Shown: positions 15,990 to 63,521, counted from the first letter of the whole stretch. The stretch is DNA of 63,580 bases, filler included, from an uncultured Myxococcia bacterium (GCA_964617105.1; 4 parts of 4 records of this genome joined end to end with filler, not necessarily neighbours in it), one strand, 5' to 3'. Notes: a model not told the origin generated them from the letters alone. Numbers and translations are program-made.

Positions 15990-16089
15990 NNNNNNNNNNN
16001 NNNNNNNNNNNNNNNNNNNNNNNNNNNNNNNNNTTAATTAATTAANNNNNNNNNNNNNNNNNNNNNNNNNNNNNNNNNNNNNNNNNNNN
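15990..16089. other. Artificial contig spacer
   Basis: N44-TTAATTAATTAA-N44, giving stops in all six frames. Confidence 0.98.
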
Positions 16090-32001: not shown

Positions 32002-32101
32002 NNNNNNNNNNNNNNNNNNNNNNNNNNNNNNNNNNNNNNNNNNNNTTAATTAATTAANNNNNNNNNNNNNNNNNNNNNNNNNNNNNNNNNNNNNNNNNNN
32101 N
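32002..32101. other. Artificial contig spacer
   Basis: N44-TTAATTAATTAA-N44. Confidence 0.98.
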
Positions 32102-47415: not shown

Positions 47416-47989
47416 ATGCCCTTTCCTCTTGGAAACCTCTCTATATCACCGCCAACTTTCCTGGCTCCAATTGCCGGTTTTACCGACAATGCCTGCCGTT
47501 GCCTATGCCATTATGCTGGGGCCGGTATGGTATTCACCGAGATGGTGAGCGCGGTAGGAATATCCTACAACTCCAAAGGCAGCCTGGACTACTTGGATAT
47601 TCGCGGCCAACAAGGATTAGTGAGCCTGCAACTCTTTGGTCCTCAGCCAAAGATCCTGGCCCTGGCGGCTCAACGGGCGGTGCAAGATGCAAAAAACAAA
47701 TTTCATGCTCTCAATATTAACATGGGCTGCCCGGCAAAAAAGGTAGTCAAAAACGGCTCTGGCGTGGCTTTAATGAAAAATCCTGGCCAGGTCGAGAAAA
47801 TAGTAAAAACCATCAAATCAAAAGTAAATTTGCCCCTGTCAGTAAAATTCCGTTCCGGCTGGGACGCCGCAACCATAAACGCGGTGGAGGTGGCCAGGGC
47901 GGCTGAAGCCGGCGGCGCCGATGCCGTAATAGTACATCCGCGGCTTCGCACCCAACCCTATTACCAACCAGCCCATTGGCCAGTAATCA
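47416..47989 (+). CDS. dusB: tRNA-dihydrouridine synthase (DusB-like), truncated at contig end
   Basis: LAPIAGFTD, FTEMVS, QLFG, NINMGCP (catalytic Cys), VKFRSGWD, VHPR. Confidence 0.85.
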
Positions 47990-48089
47990 NNNNNNNNNNN
48001 NNNNNNNNNNNNNNNNNNNNNNNNNNNNNNNNNTTAATTAATTAANNNNNNNNNNNNNNNNNNNNNNNNNNNNNNNNNNNNNNNNNNNN
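47990..48089. other. Artificial contig spacer
   Basis: N44-TTAATTAATTAA-N44. Confidence 0.98.
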
Positions 48090-52254: not shown

Positions 52255-52498
52255 AAACACCAGTTCCCGAAATTTAAAGGCATTTCACCCGAAATTGCCT
52301 TCTGATTTATAAAATACCAACACTGGATATTAGCAATGAGTGTTTGAATTGTCAATTGTTGTAGAAATCAAAAGATGGCTCTGAAAAATGATCTCAGATC
52401 TGTAATATTTGAGATTCCCGCTTTCCAGATTGGGTCGCATATGGTCATTGTTGCTAATTTTGATTGACAATCAATAATAACCATGATAATTGTTATGC

Positions 52499-53833
52499 AT
52501 GGTTGCTTTATTGTCAGAAATCAATAATAGACTGCTTAGATTCAATCCCTGGATAGTTAAACCAGATGCCTATCAAAAATATATTTCTCCTTTCTTGCCG
52601 GAGAAATACATCCCCAGGCAACTCGATCGAGTAAAAATTTCTTCAAAACAAGCCTTGGTCATTATCGGACCGCGTCAATCGGGCAAATCCACTATCGCCT
52701 GGCATCTTTTGAAACCATTTTTCCCCAATCTCCTTTTTTTCAACATGGAAGATCCATTGTTAAAAACAGGATGCGTTTCAGCAATAGAAATGATTTCTCT
52801 TATTCGTTCAGATTTTCCTTTTATAAAGGCTATTTTTATTGACGAAATCCAGCACCTGGAAGAGGCAGGATTATTCGTGAAAATGATGGTGGATGCCAGG
52901 TTTAATTTACCTATTATCGTTACTGGTTCTTCCTCTTTTCATTTAAGGAGCAAAACAAGGGAGTCCCTGGCGGGCCGGGCAATCCGCAGAATGCTTCTAC
53001 CCTTTTCCTTGCAGGAACTGCTTGACGATATTCAGCCTTCAAATGATCTGGCCATGAAAGAAGTTTGTAATGAGATAGTCGGTCATCAATTGATAATCGG
53101 TTCCTATCCTTCAGTATATTTAGAAAAAAAAATAGAGGACAAAAAGATCATATTGAGTGACCTGGTCGAGGCGCTAATATTAAGAGATGCATCCGATATT
53201 TTTAAAATTAAAAGAATCGATGCCTTTCGAAAACTTATGACTCTGTTGGCAGGTCAAATAGGCAATTTGATAAATGTTTCGGAATTAGCCGCGCACTGTA
53301 ATGTCAATGTGGGTTCAGTCAATGCCTACATCGAGATAATGGAGGAAAGTCATATCATAAAAAGGCTCAGACCTTTTGTCGGTGGTAAACGCCATGAAAT
53401 AACCGGCGCTCCAAAAATATTCTTTATTGACAATGGTATTCGGAATCAGCTTTTGAATAGTTTTTCAACGAACATAGATTTGAGGACAGACCGGGGACCA
53501 CTTTTTGAAAATTGGCTTTTTAGCGAAATATACAAAGCCTTGCCCTTTCAGGCTACAATTAAATATTGGCGCAGCAAATCAGGAGCGGAAGTCGATTTTA
53601 TCATTGAATTTGCCAATCAGTTAATAGGCATAGAAGCCAAGGCAAGTAAATTAACAAAAACCAGGTTGAGTAAATCGGCAACCAGTTTTGTCAAAGCCTA
53701 TAAACCCTTGAAACTTGCCATCGTAAACCTATCTCTGGACATGCAGGCAGAATATGGAGGAACACAGATAGATTTTATCACACCCCCAGGGTTGTTGAAA
53801 TGGCTCGACTCGATTCACACTCTGTCCGGCTGA
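52499..53833 (+). CDS. AAA+ ATPase with DUF4143 and C-terminal PD-(D/E)xK-like motif
   Basis: GPRQSGKS, IFIDEIQ, TGSSS, ESLAGR, KIFFIDNG, LFEN, EVDF...IEAK. Confidence 0.88.
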   Translation: MVALLSEINNRLLRFNPWIVKPDAYQKYISPFLPEKYIPRQLDRVKISSKQALVIIGPRQSGKSTIAWHLLKPFFPNLLFFNMEDPLLKTGCVSAIEMISLIRSDFPFIKAIFIDEIQHLEEAGLFVKMMVDARFNLPIIVTGSSSFHLRSKTRESLAGRAIRRMLLPFSLQELLDDIQPSNDLAMKEVCNEIVGHQLIIGSYPSVYLEKKIEDKKIILSDLVEALILRDASDIFKIKRIDAFRKLMTLLAGQIGNLINVSELAAHCNVNVGSVNAYIEIMEESHIIKRLRPFVGGKRHEITGAPKIFFIDNGIRNQLLNSFSTNIDLRTDRGPLFENWLFSEIYKALPFQATIKYWRSKSGAEVDFIIEFANQLIGIEAKASKLTKTRLSKSATSFVKAYKPLKLAIVNLSLDMQAEYGGTQIDFITPPGLLKWLDSIHTLSG

Positions 53834-57790: not shown

Positions 57791-58927
57791 ATGAATGAGT
57801 TAACTCGCTATAGTGAATCGGTGATTACCAATGACTTGGCCAAAAAAATGGTTTTTTTGGCTGGCTCAAGACAAAGTGGCAAAACAACCCTAGCCAAAAA
57901 GTTACTGAGAACATTTAATCAAAGTATTAAAGCAAGATATTTAAACTGGGATTCTGGCCGGGACAGAGAAAAAATCATCAGGGAGAGTTTTCCCGCCGGC
58001 CGGGGTTTGCTGGTATTGGACGAAATTCACAAATACACCCGTTGGCGCCAGGCAGTCAAAGGCCTTTACGATAAACGGGGTGATGACTTACAAATCCTGG
58101 TTACCGGAAGTGCCAAACTCGATCATTATCGCCATGGCGGTGACTCGCTTCAGGGCAGGTATCATTTTTATCGGCTCCATCCACTCTCATTTGCCGAAAT
58201 TGGTGGACAATCTATCTCTGACCTTAAAGACCTGCTAACTTTCAGCGGTTTTCCCCAACCATTTTGCCTGGCCTCGGAAAGGGAGACAAAACGGTGGAGC
58301 CGCGAATACCGCACCCGGCTGATTGGCGATGAATTGCAAGACCTGGAAAAAGTCAAAGATATCGCACTGGTCCAGCAACTTGTCCTCAGGCTTCCAGATT
58401 TGGTTGGTTCTCCATTGTCTATCAACAATCTTCGCGAAGACCTCCAGGTAGCCCACCAAACCGTGGCCCGATGGATTCAGATTCTTGAAAATCTTTATAT
58501 GATCTTTAGGGTCTATCCATTTGGCAGCCCACTCATAAGAGCCGTTAAAAAAGAGGCAAAACATTACCATGCTGATTGGACGGTAATTTCTGATCCGGGG
58601 GCGCGCTTTGAAAACCTGGTGGCCTGCCATCTCCTCAAATGGTGTCATTTTCTTCAGGATACCGAAGGCAGGGAGATGGAACTCCGCTATTTTCGCGATG
58701 TGGAACGCCGGGAAGTGGACTTTGTGATCATGGAAGACAATACTCCAATTCAGTTGATTGAATGCAAAACATCACGCCGGGATTCAACCCGGTCACTCCG
58801 CTATCTAAAACAACGTTTTCCTCAGGCGTCCGCTTTTCAGGTAGACCTTAACGGCCAACAAGATGTTGTTGACAAAGATAATATACATCAAATCCCGGCA
58901 ATAAAATTTTTAGCAGGGTTGGTTTAA
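57791..58927 (+). CDS. AAA+ ATPase with DUF4143 and C-terminal PD-(D/E)xK-like motif
   Basis: GSRQSGKT, LVLDEIHK, VTGSA, GDSLQGR, RFENLVA, EVDF...IECK. Confidence 0.88.
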   Translation: MNELTRYSESVITNDLAKKMVFLAGSRQSGKTTLAKKLLRTFNQSIKARYLNWDSGRDREKIIRESFPAGRGLLVLDEIHKYTRWRQAVKGLYDKRGDDLQILVTGSAKLDHYRHGGDSLQGRYHFYRLHPLSFAEIGGQSISDLKDLLTFSGFPQPFCLASERETKRWSREYRTRLIGDELQDLEKVKDIALVQQLVLRLPDLVGSPLSINNLREDLQVAHQTVARWIQILENLYMIFRVYPFGSPLIRAVKKEAKHYHADWTVISDPGARFENLVACHLLKWCHFLQDTEGREMELRYFRDVERREVDFVIMEDNTPIQLIECKTSRRDSTRSLRYLKQRFPQASAFQVDLNGQQDVVDKDNIHQIPAIKFLAGLV

Positions 58928-58955: not shown

Positions 58956-60218
58956 TCAAATACTTGCCAGAACTTTGTCTAGTGCCCTGATTAGATCGCT
59001 CTCATCTTCGATTCCCACTGAGATACGTACCAAACCATCGGTTACTCCGGCTTTCTCCCGTTTATCCTTGGGAACACAGGCATGGGTCATTGAGGCTGGG
59101 TGTTGAATTAGAGAATCTACGCAACCAAGCGATACCGCCAGGGTAAAGATCTTGATGTTGTCCATCAACTTCCGACCTGCTTCGATACCGCCTTTAACAT
59201 CAAAAGAGACCATTCCGCCAAAATTTGCCATTTGACGTTTAGCCAATTGATAATCGCGATTACTCTCTAAACCAGGATAATAAACCCGCTCCACTTGGGG
59301 ATGATTCTCCAAATATTGAGCGATAGCGATAGCATTAGCACAGTGTTTATCCATGCGAACAGGCAAAGTTTTGAGTCCCATGTTTACCAGCCAACAATCA
59401 AAGGGACTGGGAGAAGTACCCACATCTTTTAGTGCATTGTAGGTATTTGCTTTAATCTCATCATCAATGGTGGTCATAATTCCGCCAACCACCGTTCCAT
59501 GGCCGCCAAGATACTTGGTGGTAGAATGGATCACTACATCGGCACCCATGGAGAGCGGTCGTTGAAGATATGGGGTAGCAAAAGTATTATCCACAATTAC
59601 TTTCATATTGGCATTAACATTTTTTACGATTTTCACCAGGGCAGGAATGTCCGTGATGGTCAGCATGGGATTGGTTGGTGTTTCAAACAGAATTGCCCTG
59701 GCACCGGGATTAGCCTCTACCACTTTTTCCACCGCCTTTAGATCGGAGGTATCTACTTCTATTACATTGATTCCTAAACGGGATAAAATTGTTTGAGATA
59801 GATGCTCTGTCGCACCATAAACAACATCTCCCATAATCAGGGTATCACCCTGACTGCATATGGCCAAAATGGTTGAACTTATAGCCGACATACCAGAGGA
59901 AAATGCCATTGAGGAAACACAAATATCGGGATTGGCAATCTTTACCTCTTTTCCTTCCAGAGCGTTCATTTTGGCCTCCAGAAGTAAAACGGTCGGGTTG
60001 CCCAGGCGGGTATAAACATATCCGGGTTGTTTGCCGGCAAAAATATCAGCCCCCTCCTGTGCACTTTGAAAAACAAAAGTTGATGTTTGATAAATGGCCC
60101 CAGAGTGAGAAGTCTGTTGGGGCTGGCCAATGTGTTCACCAGAATGAAGTGTCCTGGTAGCAAAGCCGCAGTCAAGATAAAATTTTTCTAAAAAATCTGG
60201 TGCTTTTGAGTCTTCCAT
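58956..60218 (-). CDS. Cys/Met-metabolism PLP enzyme, methionine gamma-lyase-like
   Basis: IYQTSTF, YTRLGNPT, SGMSAI, ETPTNP, DNTFATP, HSTTKY (PLP Lys), LAVSLG, HPASMTH, RISVGIE. Confidence 0.85.
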   Translation of the reverse strand: MEDSKAPDFLEKFYLDCGFATRTLHSGEHIGQPQQTSHSGAIYQTSTFVFQSAQEGADIFAGKQPGYVYTRLGNPTVLLLEAKMNALEGKEVKIANPDICVSSMAFSSGMSAISSTILAICSQGDTLIMGDVVYGATEHLSQTILSRLGINVIEVDTSDLKAVEKVVEANPGARAILFETPTNPMLTITDIPALVKIVKNVNANMKVIVDNTFATPYLQRPLSMGADVVIHSTTKYLGGHGTVVGGIMTTIDDEIKANTYNALKDVGTSPSPFDCWLVNMGLKTLPVRMDKHCANAIAIAQYLENHPQVERVYYPGLESNRDYQLAKRQMANFGGMVSFDVKGGIEAGRKLMDNIKIFTLAVSLGCVDSLIQHPASMTHACVPKDKREKAGVTDGLVRISVGIEDESDLIRALDKVLASI

Positions 60219-60480
60219 TAAATTAATCTCCCTTGTCCTACTGTGTCATATAATTATTGTTTCTATAGCGGTTATTATTACCATTAACGACAAATGTTCT
60301 GTAATACCCGCACCCTATTTTCTTTTTTAACGTCCAATATTATGATATCTAATTTAACGAAGTCTATACATATAAAACAATAACTAGTGCCCTGTCAATC
60401 ATCAGTTGTATCTGACTGGTTTGTCAAAGGCTAAAAAGCCCCCACTGGCAGTTTCATTTGTTCGGCCGTTTTTTGGAGAG

Positions 60481-60594
60481 TTATCCCCGATTTATATTAT
60501 AGTAGATCGAATAGTATTTATCAGCTTGACCGTTAAATCGTCTTGTGCTATGTTTCCGGAATCTGACTCCGGAATCTTGGGTTTTATACCACAT
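60481..60594 (-). pseudogene. Integrase N-terminal remnant (older copy)
   Basis: MWYKTQDSGVRFRKHSTRRFNGQADKYYSIYYNINRG-stop is homologous to the remnant at 61990-62230. Confidence 0.7.
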
Positions 60595-60636
60595 TATTCG
60601 GGGATCGTCTAACGGCAGGACAGCAGACTCTGGATC
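60491..60636 (+). repeat. Left copy of a ~146-bp imperfect direct repeat (other copy 62127-62272)
   Basis: Constant offset of 1636 nt; includes promoter, leader and tRNA 5' half. Confidence 0.92.
60598..60636 (+). pseudogene. Displaced 5' half of tRNA-Gln(CTG) (att site)
   Basis: TCGGGGATCGTCTAACGGCAGGACAGCAGACTCTGGATC covers the acceptor 5' strand, D arm and anticodon loop, then unrelated sequence follows. Confidence 0.88.
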
Positions 60637-60670
60637 AGATTCCCCCGCAAAACACATAATGAATGATAAC

Positions 60671-60700
60671 AAAGGGTTGGCGAAATTGCCAGCCCTTTTT
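60671..60700 (+). terminator. Rho-independent terminator just inside the element's left end
   Basis: AAAGGGTTGGC-GAAATT-GCCAGCCCTTTTT. Confidence 0.75.
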
Positions 60701-60853
60701 GGTTTCTTGAAGTCGTTTAGTCCCACTATAGTCCCACCTTTTCTGGGAATTGGGGGGAAGGTTGACAGTAACAGGGTACCTATACTGGACCAGAACACTT
60801 TTTTTGAGTATATTAAATGTTCTTTAAATTGTATGCAATAAGGTGCCATCTTT

Positions 60854-60900
60854 ATTGTAATTACAATATGATTGACAAATGAGCAAAATGTAGTTACAAT
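60854..60900 (+). promoter_or_regulatory. brnTA promoter with operator palindromes
   Basis: TTGACA (60872-60877)-N17-TACAAT (60895-60900); palindrome ATTGTAATTACAAT (60854-60867) and a near-copy overlapping the -10. Confidence 0.75.
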
Positions 60901-60905
60901 TTAAT

Positions 60906-61175
60906 ATGGAATATGAGTGGGACGAAAATAAAAGAATTGCAAATATAGCCAAGCACAATGTTGATTTTTCTGAGGCTGAAAATTTTGATTGGTCTTCAGC
61001 CCTGGCAACAGTTGATGATCGGTTCGAATATCAAGAAGAGAGGTGGGTGGCTTTAGGTTTGATAAATAACCGCCTTCATGTTCTTGTTTATGCTTTTCGG
61101 AATGATAATATACGCATTATCAGTCTCCGGCGGGCCAATAAAAGGGAGCAGGATTATTATGAAAAAAAAACCTGA
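60906..61175 (+). CDS. brnT: BrnT family toxin (RNase)
   Basis: MEYEWDENKRIANIAKHNVDF, DDRFEYQEERW, IRIISLRRANKRE. Confidence 0.92.
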   Translation: MEYEWDENKRIANIAKHNVDFSEAENFDWSSALATVDDRFEYQEERWVALGLINNRLHVLVYAFRNDNIRIISLRRANKREQDYYEKKT

Positions 61176-61452
61176 GCACATAAGTCAAAAAGATTGGGAT
61201 GATGTGGCGTCACCTCCTCTTTCAAACGATATGCTGCAAAAATTAAAATCTGTGGGTAAACTACATCCCCAGATACCTGCCAGGGTTAGAGGGCCACAAA
61301 AATTACCGGTGAAAAAACAGCTTACTATTCGGTTGAATCAGGAAATTGTTGACTATTTTAAAAACCAGGGAAAAAGCTGGCAAACACAGATCAATGACGT
61401 CCTGATTGAATATGTAAAGTCGCAAAAATCTGACCGTTCTCGAATCGGATAA
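61159..61452 (+). CDS. brnA: BrnA family antitoxin
   Basis: RGPQKLPVKKQLTIRLNQEIVDYFKNQGKSWQTQINDVL (RHH-type C-terminus); overlaps the brnT stop. Confidence 0.9.
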   Translation: MKKKPEHISQKDWDDVASPPLSNDMLQKLKSVGKLHPQIPARVRGPQKLPVKKQLTIRLNQEIVDYFKNQGKSWQTQINDVLIEYVKSQKSDRSRIG

Positions 61453-61671: not shown

Positions 61672-61964
61672 ATGGCTAAAAATAGGTCAAATAAAAAAAT
61701 CATTGGTTATCTTCGAATATCAACCGGCCAGCAGGATTTAGAAAATCAGAGATTCGGAATTTTACGATTAGCAAACCAGCACAATTGGGGGTAAAATTAG
61801 GCCGACCTAAAGGACCCGGAAAGTCTAAACTAGATGGTAAAGAGAAAGAGATAAAGTCTCTTCTGGATAAGGGGGTTGGCATCGCCTCAATAGCTAAGAT
61901 TTACGATTGCTCCTGGCCCTGTGTGAAAAATTTTATTGCCAAAAAAATTAAATTGTCCCCATGA
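61672..61964 (+). pseudogene. Serine recombinase (resolvase) with internal deletion and frameshift
   Basis: MAKNRSNKKIIGYLRISTGQQDLENQ...NWG-stop (61792-61794), joined out of frame to GVKLGRPKG...IASIAKIYDCSWPCVKNFI (HTH). GAGG RBS. Confidence 0.85.
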
Positions 61965-61989
61965 GCCTTTGGTTTCAGTAGCAGTACCA

Positions 61990-62230
61990 ACTCTCTTGTT
62001 TCAGCCAAGGTTTGGGCACCGTCTCCGGTTCTATAGGCTTCCCGCAACTCACTTCTCTTATTCATTGCCTTTTGGGCATTCATCCCTTCAGATGCCCAGC
62101 CTAACCCTTCCTCTTTGAGTTTGTTGTTTATTTTATAGCGAATGGCAAAGTATTTATCAGCTTGACCGTTAAATCGTCTTATGCTATGTTTCCGGTATCC
62201 GACACCGGGATATCGGGTTTTATACCACAT
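61990..62230 (-). pseudogene. Tyrosine integrase N-terminal fragment; catalytic domain deleted
   Basis: MWYKTRYPGVGYRKH...DKYFAIRYKINNKLKEEGLGWASEGMNAQKA...RTGDGAQTLAE matches the N-terminus of deltaproteobacterial site-specific integrases as recalled; adjacent to the att site. Confidence 0.75.
62162..62190 (+). promoter_or_regulatory. Predicted tRNA-Gln promoter embedded antisense in the integrase CDS
   Basis: TTGACC-N17-TATGTT with extended -10 TG; same hexamers at 60526-60554. Confidence 0.65.
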
Positions 62231-62233
62231 TAT

Positions 62234-62307
62234 TCGGGGATCGTATAACGGCAATACGGTAGACTCTGGATCTGCTTATCTAGGTTCGAATCCTAGTCCC
62301 CGAGCCA
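62234..62307 (+). tRNA. tRNA-Gln(CTG)
   Basis: TCGGGGA/TCCCCGA acceptor stem, anticodon arm GTAGA-CTCTGGA-TCTGC, CTAGG-TTCGAAT-CCTAG T arm, encoded CCA. Confidence 0.95.
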
Positions 62308-62317
62308 GCATTATTTC

Positions 62318-62352
62318 AAGGGCTTAGCCAGTTTTGGTTGAGTCCTTTTTTT
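62318..62352 (+). terminator. Rho-independent terminator after tRNA-Gln
   Basis: AAGGGCTTAGCCA-GTTT-TGGTTGAGTCCTT followed by a T-run. Confidence 0.75.
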
Positions 62353-62483
62353 GTTGGTGGATAAGATGTTGCCTCCCACCCCTGCCCCTGTCCAAATATT
62401 TTTTAACTCAAAATAAAGCAGCGTGGTAAAATAATTGATGGCTGGATTTTACGGCGCATTTGATAAATTTGGAGGAACCATTC

Positions 62484-63521
62484 ATGTCTTATCAAGGAAT
62501 AATTGACTTTAGATCCGATACTGTAACCAGGCCGTCAAAAGCGATGATTGAGATGATGGCATCGGCAAAATTGGGCGATGATGTGCTGGGTGATGATCCA
62601 ACCGTAAAATTGTTGGAGGAGAAAACCGCTCAACTTTTTGGCAAAGAGGCGGCCATATTTGTCCCCACGGGGACCCAGGGCAATGTGATTGCCTGCAAAC
62701 TGTGGACCCGGGAGGGGGAGAGAGTGCTTCTGGAGGATCGTTGCCACATCTACAATTTTGAAACTTCTCAACTGGCCATGATCTGTCGACTTATGCCCCG
62801 GCCCCTGGCCTCCAACCTGGGAAAAATTCCTCTGGAGAGGCTGGAGGCGGAGATGGTGATTCCGGAAGATATTCACCTGGCCCGCACCACTCTTTTGGTC
62901 CTGGAAAATACCCATAATTTCTGGAGCGGCGCCATCTTGTCGCCAGATTATCTGGAATCTGCCTACAAACTGGCCCACCAACACGGTTTGAAACTGCACT
63001 TGGACGGAGCCCGCCTTTGGAATGCCGCAGCGGAAACAGATATCCCCCTAAAAAGCTTCACTCAATGGACCGATTCGGTTATGGCTTGCTTCTCTAAGGG
63101 GCTAGGTGCGCCCATTGGCTCTATCTTGGCCGGGCCCGCCGATTTTATCCTGGAAGCCCGGCGAATCCGAAAAATGCTGGGTGGAGGCATGAGGCAGGTG
63201 GGGGGACTGGCGGCGGCAGCCCTCTACGCACTGGAGCACAACCGGGCCCGATTGGTAGAGGATAATCGGCGAGCCAAAAAGATGGCGGAGTTTCTGGCCC
63301 AAATACCGACCCTGGAGGTGAACTTAGAGGCGGTGCAGACAAATATAGTTTTTGTGCGGGTAAAGGAAGAGGGGATGGTGGATAAGTGGTTAGCTTCCCT
63401 GCAAGAGAACGGCGTGTTGACCGAGATCGTGGAAAAAGACACCATCCGCCTGGTAACTCACCTGGATATCGATGATGATGATGTGGAGAGATTTATCAAA
63501 CTGGCAGCAAAGTTTTTTTAA
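62484..63521 (+). CDS. ltaE: Low-specificity L-threonine aldolase
   Basis: DFRSDTVT, GDDVLGDDPT, PTGTQGN, LENTHN, HLDGARL, FSKGLGAP (PLP Lys), GGGMRQ; GGAGG RBS before ATG 62484. Confidence 0.92.
   Translation: MSYQGIIDFRSDTVTRPSKAMIEMMASAKLGDDVLGDDPTVKLLEEKTAQLFGKEAAIFVPTGTQGNVIACKLWTREGERVLLEDRCHIYNFETSQLAMICRLMPRPLASNLGKIPLERLEAEMVIPEDIHLARTTLLVLENTHNFWSGAILSPDYLESAYKLAHQHGLKLHLDGARLWNAAAETDIPLKSFTQWTDSVMACFSKGLGAPIGSILAGPADFILEARRIRKMLGGGMRQVGGLAAAALYALEHNRARLVEDNRRAKKMAEFLAQIPTLEVNLEAVQTNIVFVRVKEEGMVDKWLASLQENGVLTEIVEKDTIRLVTHLDIDDDDVERFIKLAAKFF

Follow-up and report, generated by a model that had tools for sequence, protein, structure and literature searches.

Probable remains of two reversed-polarity island insertions in a tRNA-Gln gene, with a candidate tRNA promoter inside the integrase stub

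Introduction

Can the first codons of an integrase gene also carry, on their antisense strand, the promoter of the host tRNA gene beside them? The question is raised by a locus of an uncultured Myxococcia bacterium (GCA_964617105.1), at which an integrase reading frame and a tRNA-Gln(CUG) gene diverge with only 3 nt between them. At this spacing any promoter near the tRNA must sit in integrase-derived DNA, and one supplied by an island must lie within the integrase coding sequence itself. The initial annotation read the stretch as DNA on triple duty, that is, an integrase coding sequence that bears both the promoter and a leader hairpin of the tRNA on its other strand, and suggested a possible recombination-coupled switch, of a kind that it was not aware of having been described. 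We have followed up these proposals in the whole stretch of DNA available, 63,580 nucleotides including filler, which is referred to below as the window.

Islands in tRNA genes that have a displaced 5′ fragment were reportedly recognized by Zhao and Williams in 2002, as cases of 'reversed target orientation'. In elements of the SSV and Mx8 types the integrase reading frame crosses the core and is split upon integration. The remaining background is taken from portions of the published sources. In the part of Islander considered here, 159 of 3919 islands have a 5′ tDNA fragment, 2083 sites are anticodon-centered and 125 are in tandem arrays, and an overlap of integrase coding sequence with the tDNA-derived att is described as tolerated in SSV- and Mx8-type integrases. 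Recombination distal to the 5′ side is called 'considerably less frequent' in the section of Krupovic et al. (2019) used here. According to the part of Panis et al. (2010, PLoS Genet 6:e1001149) drawn upon, integrase promoters that lie over att are common among tRNA-associated integrases and give autoregulation, and the OD arrangement (divergent integrase and tRNA) together with the SIT arrangement accounts for <8% of 1273 pairs. Islands in dusA take the place of the 5′ end of the target gene and supply putative −35/−10 elements for it, as stated in the portion of Farrugia et al. (2015, NAR 43:4547) that was consulted.

Results

The window is a concatenated metagenome-assembled genome, in which four contigs are joined via N44-TTAATTAATTAA-N44 linkers (15990-16089, 32002-32101 and 47990-48089). 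Gene order across the linkers carries no meaning, and one of them interrupts a Dus-family ORF (47416-48045). The tRNA-Gln locus lies entirely within the last contig (48090 to the end), flanked by two housekeeping genes (Table 1). The closest named relatives of the left-hand Cys/Met enzyme, with 68-75% identity, are labelled Planctomycetota, Myxococcota (Polyangia among them), Bradymonadales and Pseudomonadota. Elsewhere in the window, two AAA_14/DUF4143 ATPase genes (52490-53833 and 57791-58927) stand around a 1227-aa 7TMR-DISM hybrid histidine kinase.

The locus contains a repeat block of integrase codons and tRNA-Gln 5′ half in two copies, A and B, which are about 1.6 kb apart; BLAST aligns 62149-62272 with 60513-60636 at 90% identity over 124 nt. 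Each of the two junctions is bridged, with no differences, by independent contigs of public DNA runs from two studies (60324-61089 by record 19, 61879-62748 by record 7). In the contigs of four DNA runs, which drop rare variants, no sequence joined the two sides of the island, and neither an excised nor an empty form was seen. The tRNA-Gln genes of other organisms in those runs map onto the tRNA parts, and their upstream DNA is unrelated.

Table 1. Features of the tRNA-Gln locus and its flanks, in window coordinates
Feature	Position	Strand	Remarks
Cys/Met PLP enzyme	58956-60218		left flank, housekeeping gene
Repeat block, copy A	60497-60636		integrase stub and displaced tRNA-Gln 5′ half; putative attL-like junction
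Integrase stub, copy A	ATG 60594, ORF end 60481		37 codons; older stub
Promoter-like site, copy A	60526-60554	+	hexamers and TG identical to copy B
Displaced tRNA-Gln 5′ half	60598-60636	+	tRNA nt 1-39; copy A
Terminator-like hairpin and T-run	60671-60698	+	12 pairs, 6 G-C; just 3′ of the displaced tRNA half
Family-typical arm-type repeat	60719-60742	+	two AGTCCCAC units, 11-nt period, then CTTTT
BrnT/BrnA toxin-antitoxin pair	60906-61452	+	Pfam PF04365 (2e-26), PF14384 (2.7e-15); cargo of the remnant
Broken serine recombinase	61672-61964	+	~40 N-terminal codons; C-terminal HTH in a separate frame
Integrase stub, copy B	61901-62230	−	109 codons from ATG 62230; cut before the catalytic domain
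Repeat block, copy B	62133-62272		integrase codons 1 to ~33, 3-nt spacer, tRNA nt 1-39
Promoter-like TTGACC-N17-(TG)cTATGTT	62162-62190	+	antisense in integrase codons 14-23; 9/12 consensus match
Inverted repeat (hairpin), then T-run	62189-62222	+	7-bp version TTCCGGT/ACCGGGA
Intact tRNA-Gln(CUG)	62234-62307	+	ARAGORN; Rfam RF00005, 56.5 bits, E 6e-11
Threonine-aldolase-type lyase	from 62484		right flank, housekeeping gene

Between the two copies, the BrnT/BrnA pair are seemingly the only intact genes of the remnant island; the two ORFs as listed overlap by ~100 nt, and the start of BrnA is probably a later ATG. The N-terminal piece of the serine recombinase matches Pfam PF00239 (7.1e-05, residues 10-39 on profile positions 1-32 of 145), and its HTH piece matches PF02796 at 5.1e-04, under the cut-off of that family. 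Terminator-like hairpins trail both the displaced half and the intact tRNA (the latter at 62318-62347), with GCCAG and TTTTGGTT common to both, and transcription from the displaced promoter copy would end at the one behind the displaced half.

The reading frame beside the tRNA is integrase-derived, as had been supposed. A protein search restricted to longer proteins found nine PF00589 proteins of 381-411 aa, and the alignment sets the stub at their N-termini, with 56-66% identity over 68-83 residues; by tblastn, residues 1-109 of protein P0004 align to 62230-61913 at 52% identity. The minus-strand ORF of copy B begins MWYKTRYPGVGYRKH, and both ARAGORN and the ORF bear out that its in-frame ATG (CAT at 62228-62230) is 3 nt from nucleotide 1 of tRNA-Gln. 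Copy A has the same 3-nt spacer between the ATG and the tRNA half. The stub corresponds to the N-terminal arm-binding region of tyrosine integrases. No catalytic domain (R..H-x-x-R..Y) was found in the window, where tblastn with the nine relatives finds two N-terminal fragments only, and Pfam gave no match to either integrase fragment. The stub is a dead gene remnant, about a quarter of the gene (109 of ~390 codons). Among the matches listed, 118 of 143 distinct homologues have a Shine-Dalgarno-like 4-mer upstream of the start, and none was found upstream of the stub ATG. A fragment that is dead, has no catalytic domain and is not preceded by a Shine-Dalgarno sequence does not perform the triple duty first attributed to it, and because the integrase is dead there is no recombination or switching at the locus now.

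In the alignment, the stub ATG falls 1-4 codons within the N-terminus of 132 of the 146 homologues among the matches listed; one homologue (L129) begins at the same aligned residue as the stub, and integrase homology extends right up to the tRNA. A 122-aa ORF (60481-60849) was considered as an N-extended, attP-spanning integrase of the SSV type and was rejected, since the homologues are without such an extension and the reading frame passes through the arm repeats. The window also differs from SSV- and Mx8-type elements in that 3 nt separate the integrase ORF from the tRNA.

All 21 stem pairs of the intact tRNA-Gln form, and its anticodon loop is at 62264-62270. Identity between copies A and B runs to tRNA nt 39, 2 nt beyond the 7-nt anticodon loop, and is then lost; BLAST found no duplicate of the tRNA-Gln 3′ half in the whole window. 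By the end of identity, the att sublocation is the anticodon loop ('A'), and we infer a crossover within this loop. Judged by the Islander definitions, the tDNA is intact and a cognate 5′ fragment, oriented alike, lies upstream of it; the locus falls short as to integrase (a 109-codon stub) and length (an interval of ~1.6 kb, compared to 2-200 kb). The two tRNA halves have 5 differences with all 21 pairs kept, an outcome that random changes manage in 3.7% of cases (P=0.037), and one of the changes is a compensatory D-stem pair, A-T to C-G. This pattern suggests that both halves once served in working tRNAs, rather than that one is a decaying duplicate. The tRNA-Gln(CUG) may, for its part, be dispensable or silent.

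The proposed promoter TTGACC-N17-TATGTT is found within the integrase codons as described, and it recurs in copy A. Its −10 hexamer ends 43 nt before nucleotide 1 of tRNA-Gln, with a predicted start near 62197; hexamers and spacing agree with the sigma-70 pattern (16-18 nt, suitably placed), as a consensus match only. Ungapped comparison of 62149-62195 with 60513-60559 reproduces the single difference between the copies in these 47 nt (at 62181, inside the spacer) and the 6 differences in the next 19 nt, and the 30 nt beyond have none. The clustering of mismatches has P=0.007 within the 85 nt upstream, a span chosen post hoc, and P=0.29 with the tRNA half included. A scan of 2.2 kb gave 18 such promoter-like sites, compared to 6.0 ± 2.6 in shuffled sequence, so that the match is of ordinary grade for an AT-rich stretch; a site of equal grade (9/12, with TG) lies just upstream of the tRNA-Ser of the window. 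Taken together, the promoter, mismatch and hairpin features exceed chance only weakly, and they stand out more against the relatives. An antisense promoter-like site in the first 105 nt is present in 6 of 146 homologues (~4%) among the matches listed, with 5 and 7 in the controls; the internal −35/−10, whose conservation in homologues had been put forward as a check, is not a trait of the family. That the site is a by-product of the amino-acid sequence is unlikely, since ~2% of synonymous recodings of the integrase peptide yield a promoter-like site at that place. We put it at roughly even odds that TTGACC-N17-TGcTATGTT is the tRNA-Gln promoter, inside the integrase stub. As a consensus-based candidate, a promoter in the integrase is plausible but unproven.

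The hairpin downstream of this site is real, and so is its compensatory pair. TTCCGGA..TCCGGAA in copy A has become TTCCGGT..ACCGGGA in copy B, by one A-T to T-A swap and one G.U pair. The best fold of copy B is a 10-bp stem (62191-62217) followed by TTTTAT, which is classed as terminator-like. Folding energies are −14.7 kcal/mol for copy B (z −1.7) and −10.3 for copy A (z −1.5), and 14 and 12 of 200 shuffles, respectively, fold as well. Among the matches listed, homologues average −5.4 kcal/mol at the same place; 0 of 142 are at ≤−14 and 8% reach −10. We discarded a family-wide feature of the integrase 5′ coding region on that mean, and the hairpin is, as far as these predicted folds tell, a trait of the lineage of the window. 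Nor can it be the leader of the proposed promoter, as had been suggested, because its 5′ arm (62189-62200) starts at the last base of the −10 hexamer and precedes the predicted start (62196-62198), and the hairpin is not wholly in the transcript. The RNA that would remain (62196-62233) folds at −6.7 kcal/mol (z −0.35), no better than shuffles. The hairpin with its T-run looks more like a terminator against transcripts arriving through the integrase, one that transcripts from the overlapping promoter would escape, and it could also be a protein-binding palindrome in an att arm. At 62200 one run (X4) has T for C, a population variant that makes the hairpin loop of copy B identical to that of copy A there.

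The family of the integrase was surveyed in 167 loci: from genomes the best 80 of 446 hits, from metagenomes the best 80 of 179, and 7 viral ones. In none of these 167 does a tRNA gene abut the integrase, conservation of the ATG-to-tRNA spacing having been put forward as a check, and the integrase-tRNA junction pattern had 0 matches in viral contigs. Of the first 160 loci (the best 80 of 446 plus the best 80 of 179), 4 have a tRNA of any kind by ARAGORN, and the closest arrangement among the matches listed is a divergent tRNA-Glu 446 nt away (L090).

The relatives do share a regular upstream organization. At 5-120 nt before the integrase ATG, 119 of 139 distinct upstream regions among the matches listed have two 8-nt units, 11 nt apart and with a T-run behind them, and such a tandem occurs in 2 of the 139 when shuffled. 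A tRNA T-loop motif on the opposite strand, 151-315 nt from the ATG, is present in 59 of 124 distinct upstream regions among the matches listed; downstream controls gave 2 matches. These motif sites are tRNA 3′ halves, because ARAGORN finds no whole tRNA there. They are typically ~190 nt upstream of the integrase and, by eye, start at the anticodon stem and belong to tRNAs for Lys, Arg, Leu, Asn, Pro, Thr, Met and Gln, with a tRNA-Gln(CUG) 3′ half in three relatives (L031, L114 and L151). The pattern therefore indicates that the family uses the anticodon loop in the usual polarity, with the integrase divergent from the 3′ fragment. The order in the relatives is integrase, Shine-Dalgarno sequence, repeats, ~125 nt, and anticodon loop with 3′ half, whereas the window has the opposite half. 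Shared by the window and the usual members are the homologous N-terminal domain, the tandem repeat of 11-nt period and the anticodon-loop sublocation.

In the window the repeat AGTCCCAC-TAT-AGTCCCAC-CTTTT occurs once, and its two AGTCCCAC units are the only exact copies. It lies 85 nt beyond the anticodon loop of copy A, at the end of the remnant far from the copy B integrase. Its 24 nt are 100% identical to integrase-upstream DNA of four relatives (L136, L101, L083 and L082), and 30 of 33 BLAST rows place it 10-270 nt upstream of a homologue integrase, all on the strand opposite the integrase. With the family repeats beyond the anticodon loop, the claim that the upstream region of the integrase would cross the att site is supported.

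Four relatives (L025, L072, L138 and L163) have extra repeat copies 82-107 nt past the T-loop motif, an estimated ~95-120 nt past the anticodon loop, as expected of a second attP arm. In seven others (L136, L101, L089, L097, L142, L161 and L162) a AATCCGTTGGTCT-like stretch lies between the integrase ATG and the tandem repeats, nearer the integrase. Its sequence is similar to that of tRNA-Lys or tRNA-Arg on the 3′ side of the anticodon arm and in the variable loop. It could be a scar left when the att site lay there, or else a binding site of the core type close to the integrase promoter.

Discussion

We consider it probable that the locus represents the decayed remains of two successive island insertions, in reversed polarity, into the anticodon loop of tRNA-Gln(CUG). 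The attP of such an island would have carried the tRNA 5′ half, fused directly to the start of a tyrosine integrase, rather than the 3′ half that is usual. Crossover in the anticodon loop would then have placed the integrase start and tRNA nt 1-39 before the 3′ half of the host, and would have pushed the previous 5′ half with its upstream DNA to the far end. Nucleotides 1-39 of the present tRNA-Gln would be island-derived and the remainder host-derived. Copy A would be attL-like, a displaced 5′ half followed by the far arm of the island, and copy B attR-like, composed of integrase, island 5′ half and host 3′ half. The integrase stub within copy A itself requires that a similar island had occupied the site before, and this first island would later have been deleted down to 37 integrase codons and the tRNA half. 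The second island would have decayed to the present 1.6 kb, with its arm-type repeats, BrnTA, broken resolvase and 109-codon integrase stub. In the active ancestor, as the geometry suggests, an integrase control region with tandem repeats would have spanned the att core and would have been separated from the integrase upon integration.

The layout matches what a Campbell-type insertion in reversed polarity predicts, and the repeat beyond the copy A loop is oriented as expected with an integrase to its left. Against two reversed-polarity insertions stand several observations. No intact relative with an integrase abutting a tRNA 5′ end was found in the 167 loci (best 80 of 446, best 80 of 179 and 7 viral). 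Neither an empty site nor an excised form was seen in the four DNA runs. The arm-type repeat is missing from the int side of the inferred attP, and the ability of such an attP to recombine is therefore doubtful. The need for two insertions and at least three deletions also counts against the model. Given two reversed-polarity insertions, the tRNA 5′ half and the upstream DNA are island DNA, and the only intact tRNA-Gln at the site owes both its 5′ half and the entire region upstream to island DNA. To that extent, the original proposal that the host tRNA depends on element DNA stands, for the 5′ half and for 1.6 kb upstream; the promoter role within that DNA is the unproven part.

A more far-reaching version is that an ancestral lineage flipped its polarity as a whole, so that the first ~30 codons of its integrase doubled, antisense, as the tRNA promoter, with a hairpin shielding the tRNA and the integrase control lying across the att core. 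We regard this as possible but doubtful. Such a lineage would have been stable as well as mobile and may persist in uncultured marine bacteria. Its promoter-overlapping hairpin and T-run would shield the tRNA from transcription through the integrase, and integration would disconnect the integrase from its own control region.

Another explanation, which we consider unlikely, is that the conserved 47 nt and the palindrome are sites for recombination or regulatory proteins in an att arm, the tRNA being read from farther upstream or hardly at all. The conserved stretch is ~70-115 nt from the anticodon loop, and relatives have repeats at similar distances; in attP of the lambda type, the arm sites of tyrosine-integrase att usually lie at such distances. 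TTCCGGA-N7-TCCGGAA is shaped like a dimer-binding palindrome, and a protein site would agree with a hairpin that cannot be within a transcript starting at 62197. The part of Panis et al. (2010) used here also has binding sites for integrase and RDF overlapping promoters in att regions. However, the arm repeat of the family, AGTCCCAC, is absent from the conserved stretch, the −35, −10 and TG are intact in both copies, and the G.U pair of copy B favors pairing of plus-strand RNA (−14.7 vs −11.6 kcal/mol).

The junction might instead have arisen from a one-off rearrangement, for example an aberrant excision that joined integrase codon ~3 to tRNA nucleotide 1, followed by local duplication. In that case the promoter would be fortuitous and no mobile lineage of reversed polarity ever existed. 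The start 1-4 codons short of that in 132 of 146 homologues, with homology up to the tRNA, would be explained in this way, as would the loss of the Shine-Dalgarno sequence that 118 of 143 homologues have (both counts among the matches listed), the missing repeats on the int-side arm, and the lack of a second example in the 167 loci (best 80 of 446, best 80 of 179 and 7 viral) or in viral contigs. On the other hand, the copies are ~10% divergent and the changes in the tRNA halves keep the structure, L129 starts at the same aligned residue, and the boundary of copy A falls exactly at the anticodon loop with family repeats beyond it, which argues for a site-specific crossover rather than duplication. 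We judge such an accident to be quite improbable. An operating system, with a live integrase whose 5′ DNA is at once coding sequence, tRNA promoter and leader hairpin of a recombination-coupled switch, would suit an ancestral intact element by its geometry and by the integrase-upstream repeats across the att core, but is very hard to credit here given a 109-codon stub with no Shine-Dalgarno sequence, no catalytic domain in the window, a hairpin and predicted start that are mutually exclusive and no excised form in the four DNA runs.

The locus is a fossil tRNA island of a kind that is rare but known, in which integrase and tRNA are fused unusually tightly. It agrees with the 5′-fragment islands in its intact tDNA, the cognate 5′ fragment upstream in the same orientation, the island between them, the anticodon-centered boundary and the tandem array, and differs from them in the integrase 3 nt from tRNA nucleotide 1 and in an island reduced to a 1.6-kb wreck with a dead integrase. 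As in the OD pairs, in the part of Panis et al. (2010) considered, integrase and tRNA are divergent and the upstream region of the integrase is the recombination region; predicted autoregulated pairs have a mean intergenic distance of ~208-228 nt there, compared to 3 nt in the window, and a tRNA promoter inside the integrase is not discussed in that part. The dusA islands differ from the window in having a protein-gene target and another integrase family, and the portion of Farrugia et al. (2015) used does not report their promoter as lying inside the integrase. The arrangement had initially been thought undescribed, which is not so for the principle: islands with 5′ tDNA fragments, divergent integrase and tRNA genes, and integrase promoters over att are all published. 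A literature search, with key older papers and supplements outside its coverage, found no report of a tRNA promoter inside an integrase coding sequence; neither an integrase start fused to tRNA nucleotide 1 nor a flip of polarity within a 3′-half family was found in it, and we make no claim of absence.

If the promoter assignment is right, the locus would be an extreme case of overlapping information, in which an element, to be tolerated, would need to preserve a working promoter of a host gene within the coding sequence of its recombinase. The locus also shows a single integrase family using the same tRNA sublocation in both polarities, which bears on the evolution of attachment sites. A polarity-flipped lineage, if it existed, would provide a compact, built-in coupling of host tRNA expression, integrase expression and recombination state. 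Remnants of this kind would escape island finders designed around a 3′ fragment and an integrase-tRNA spacer of 150-250 nt. As the locus is a fossil, its value lies in pointing to intact relatives. Many metagenome loci of the family (L081-L160) are on contigs that end 20-470 nt upstream of the integrase start, a pattern consistent with assemblies breaking at an att site that is present in both integrated and empty form.
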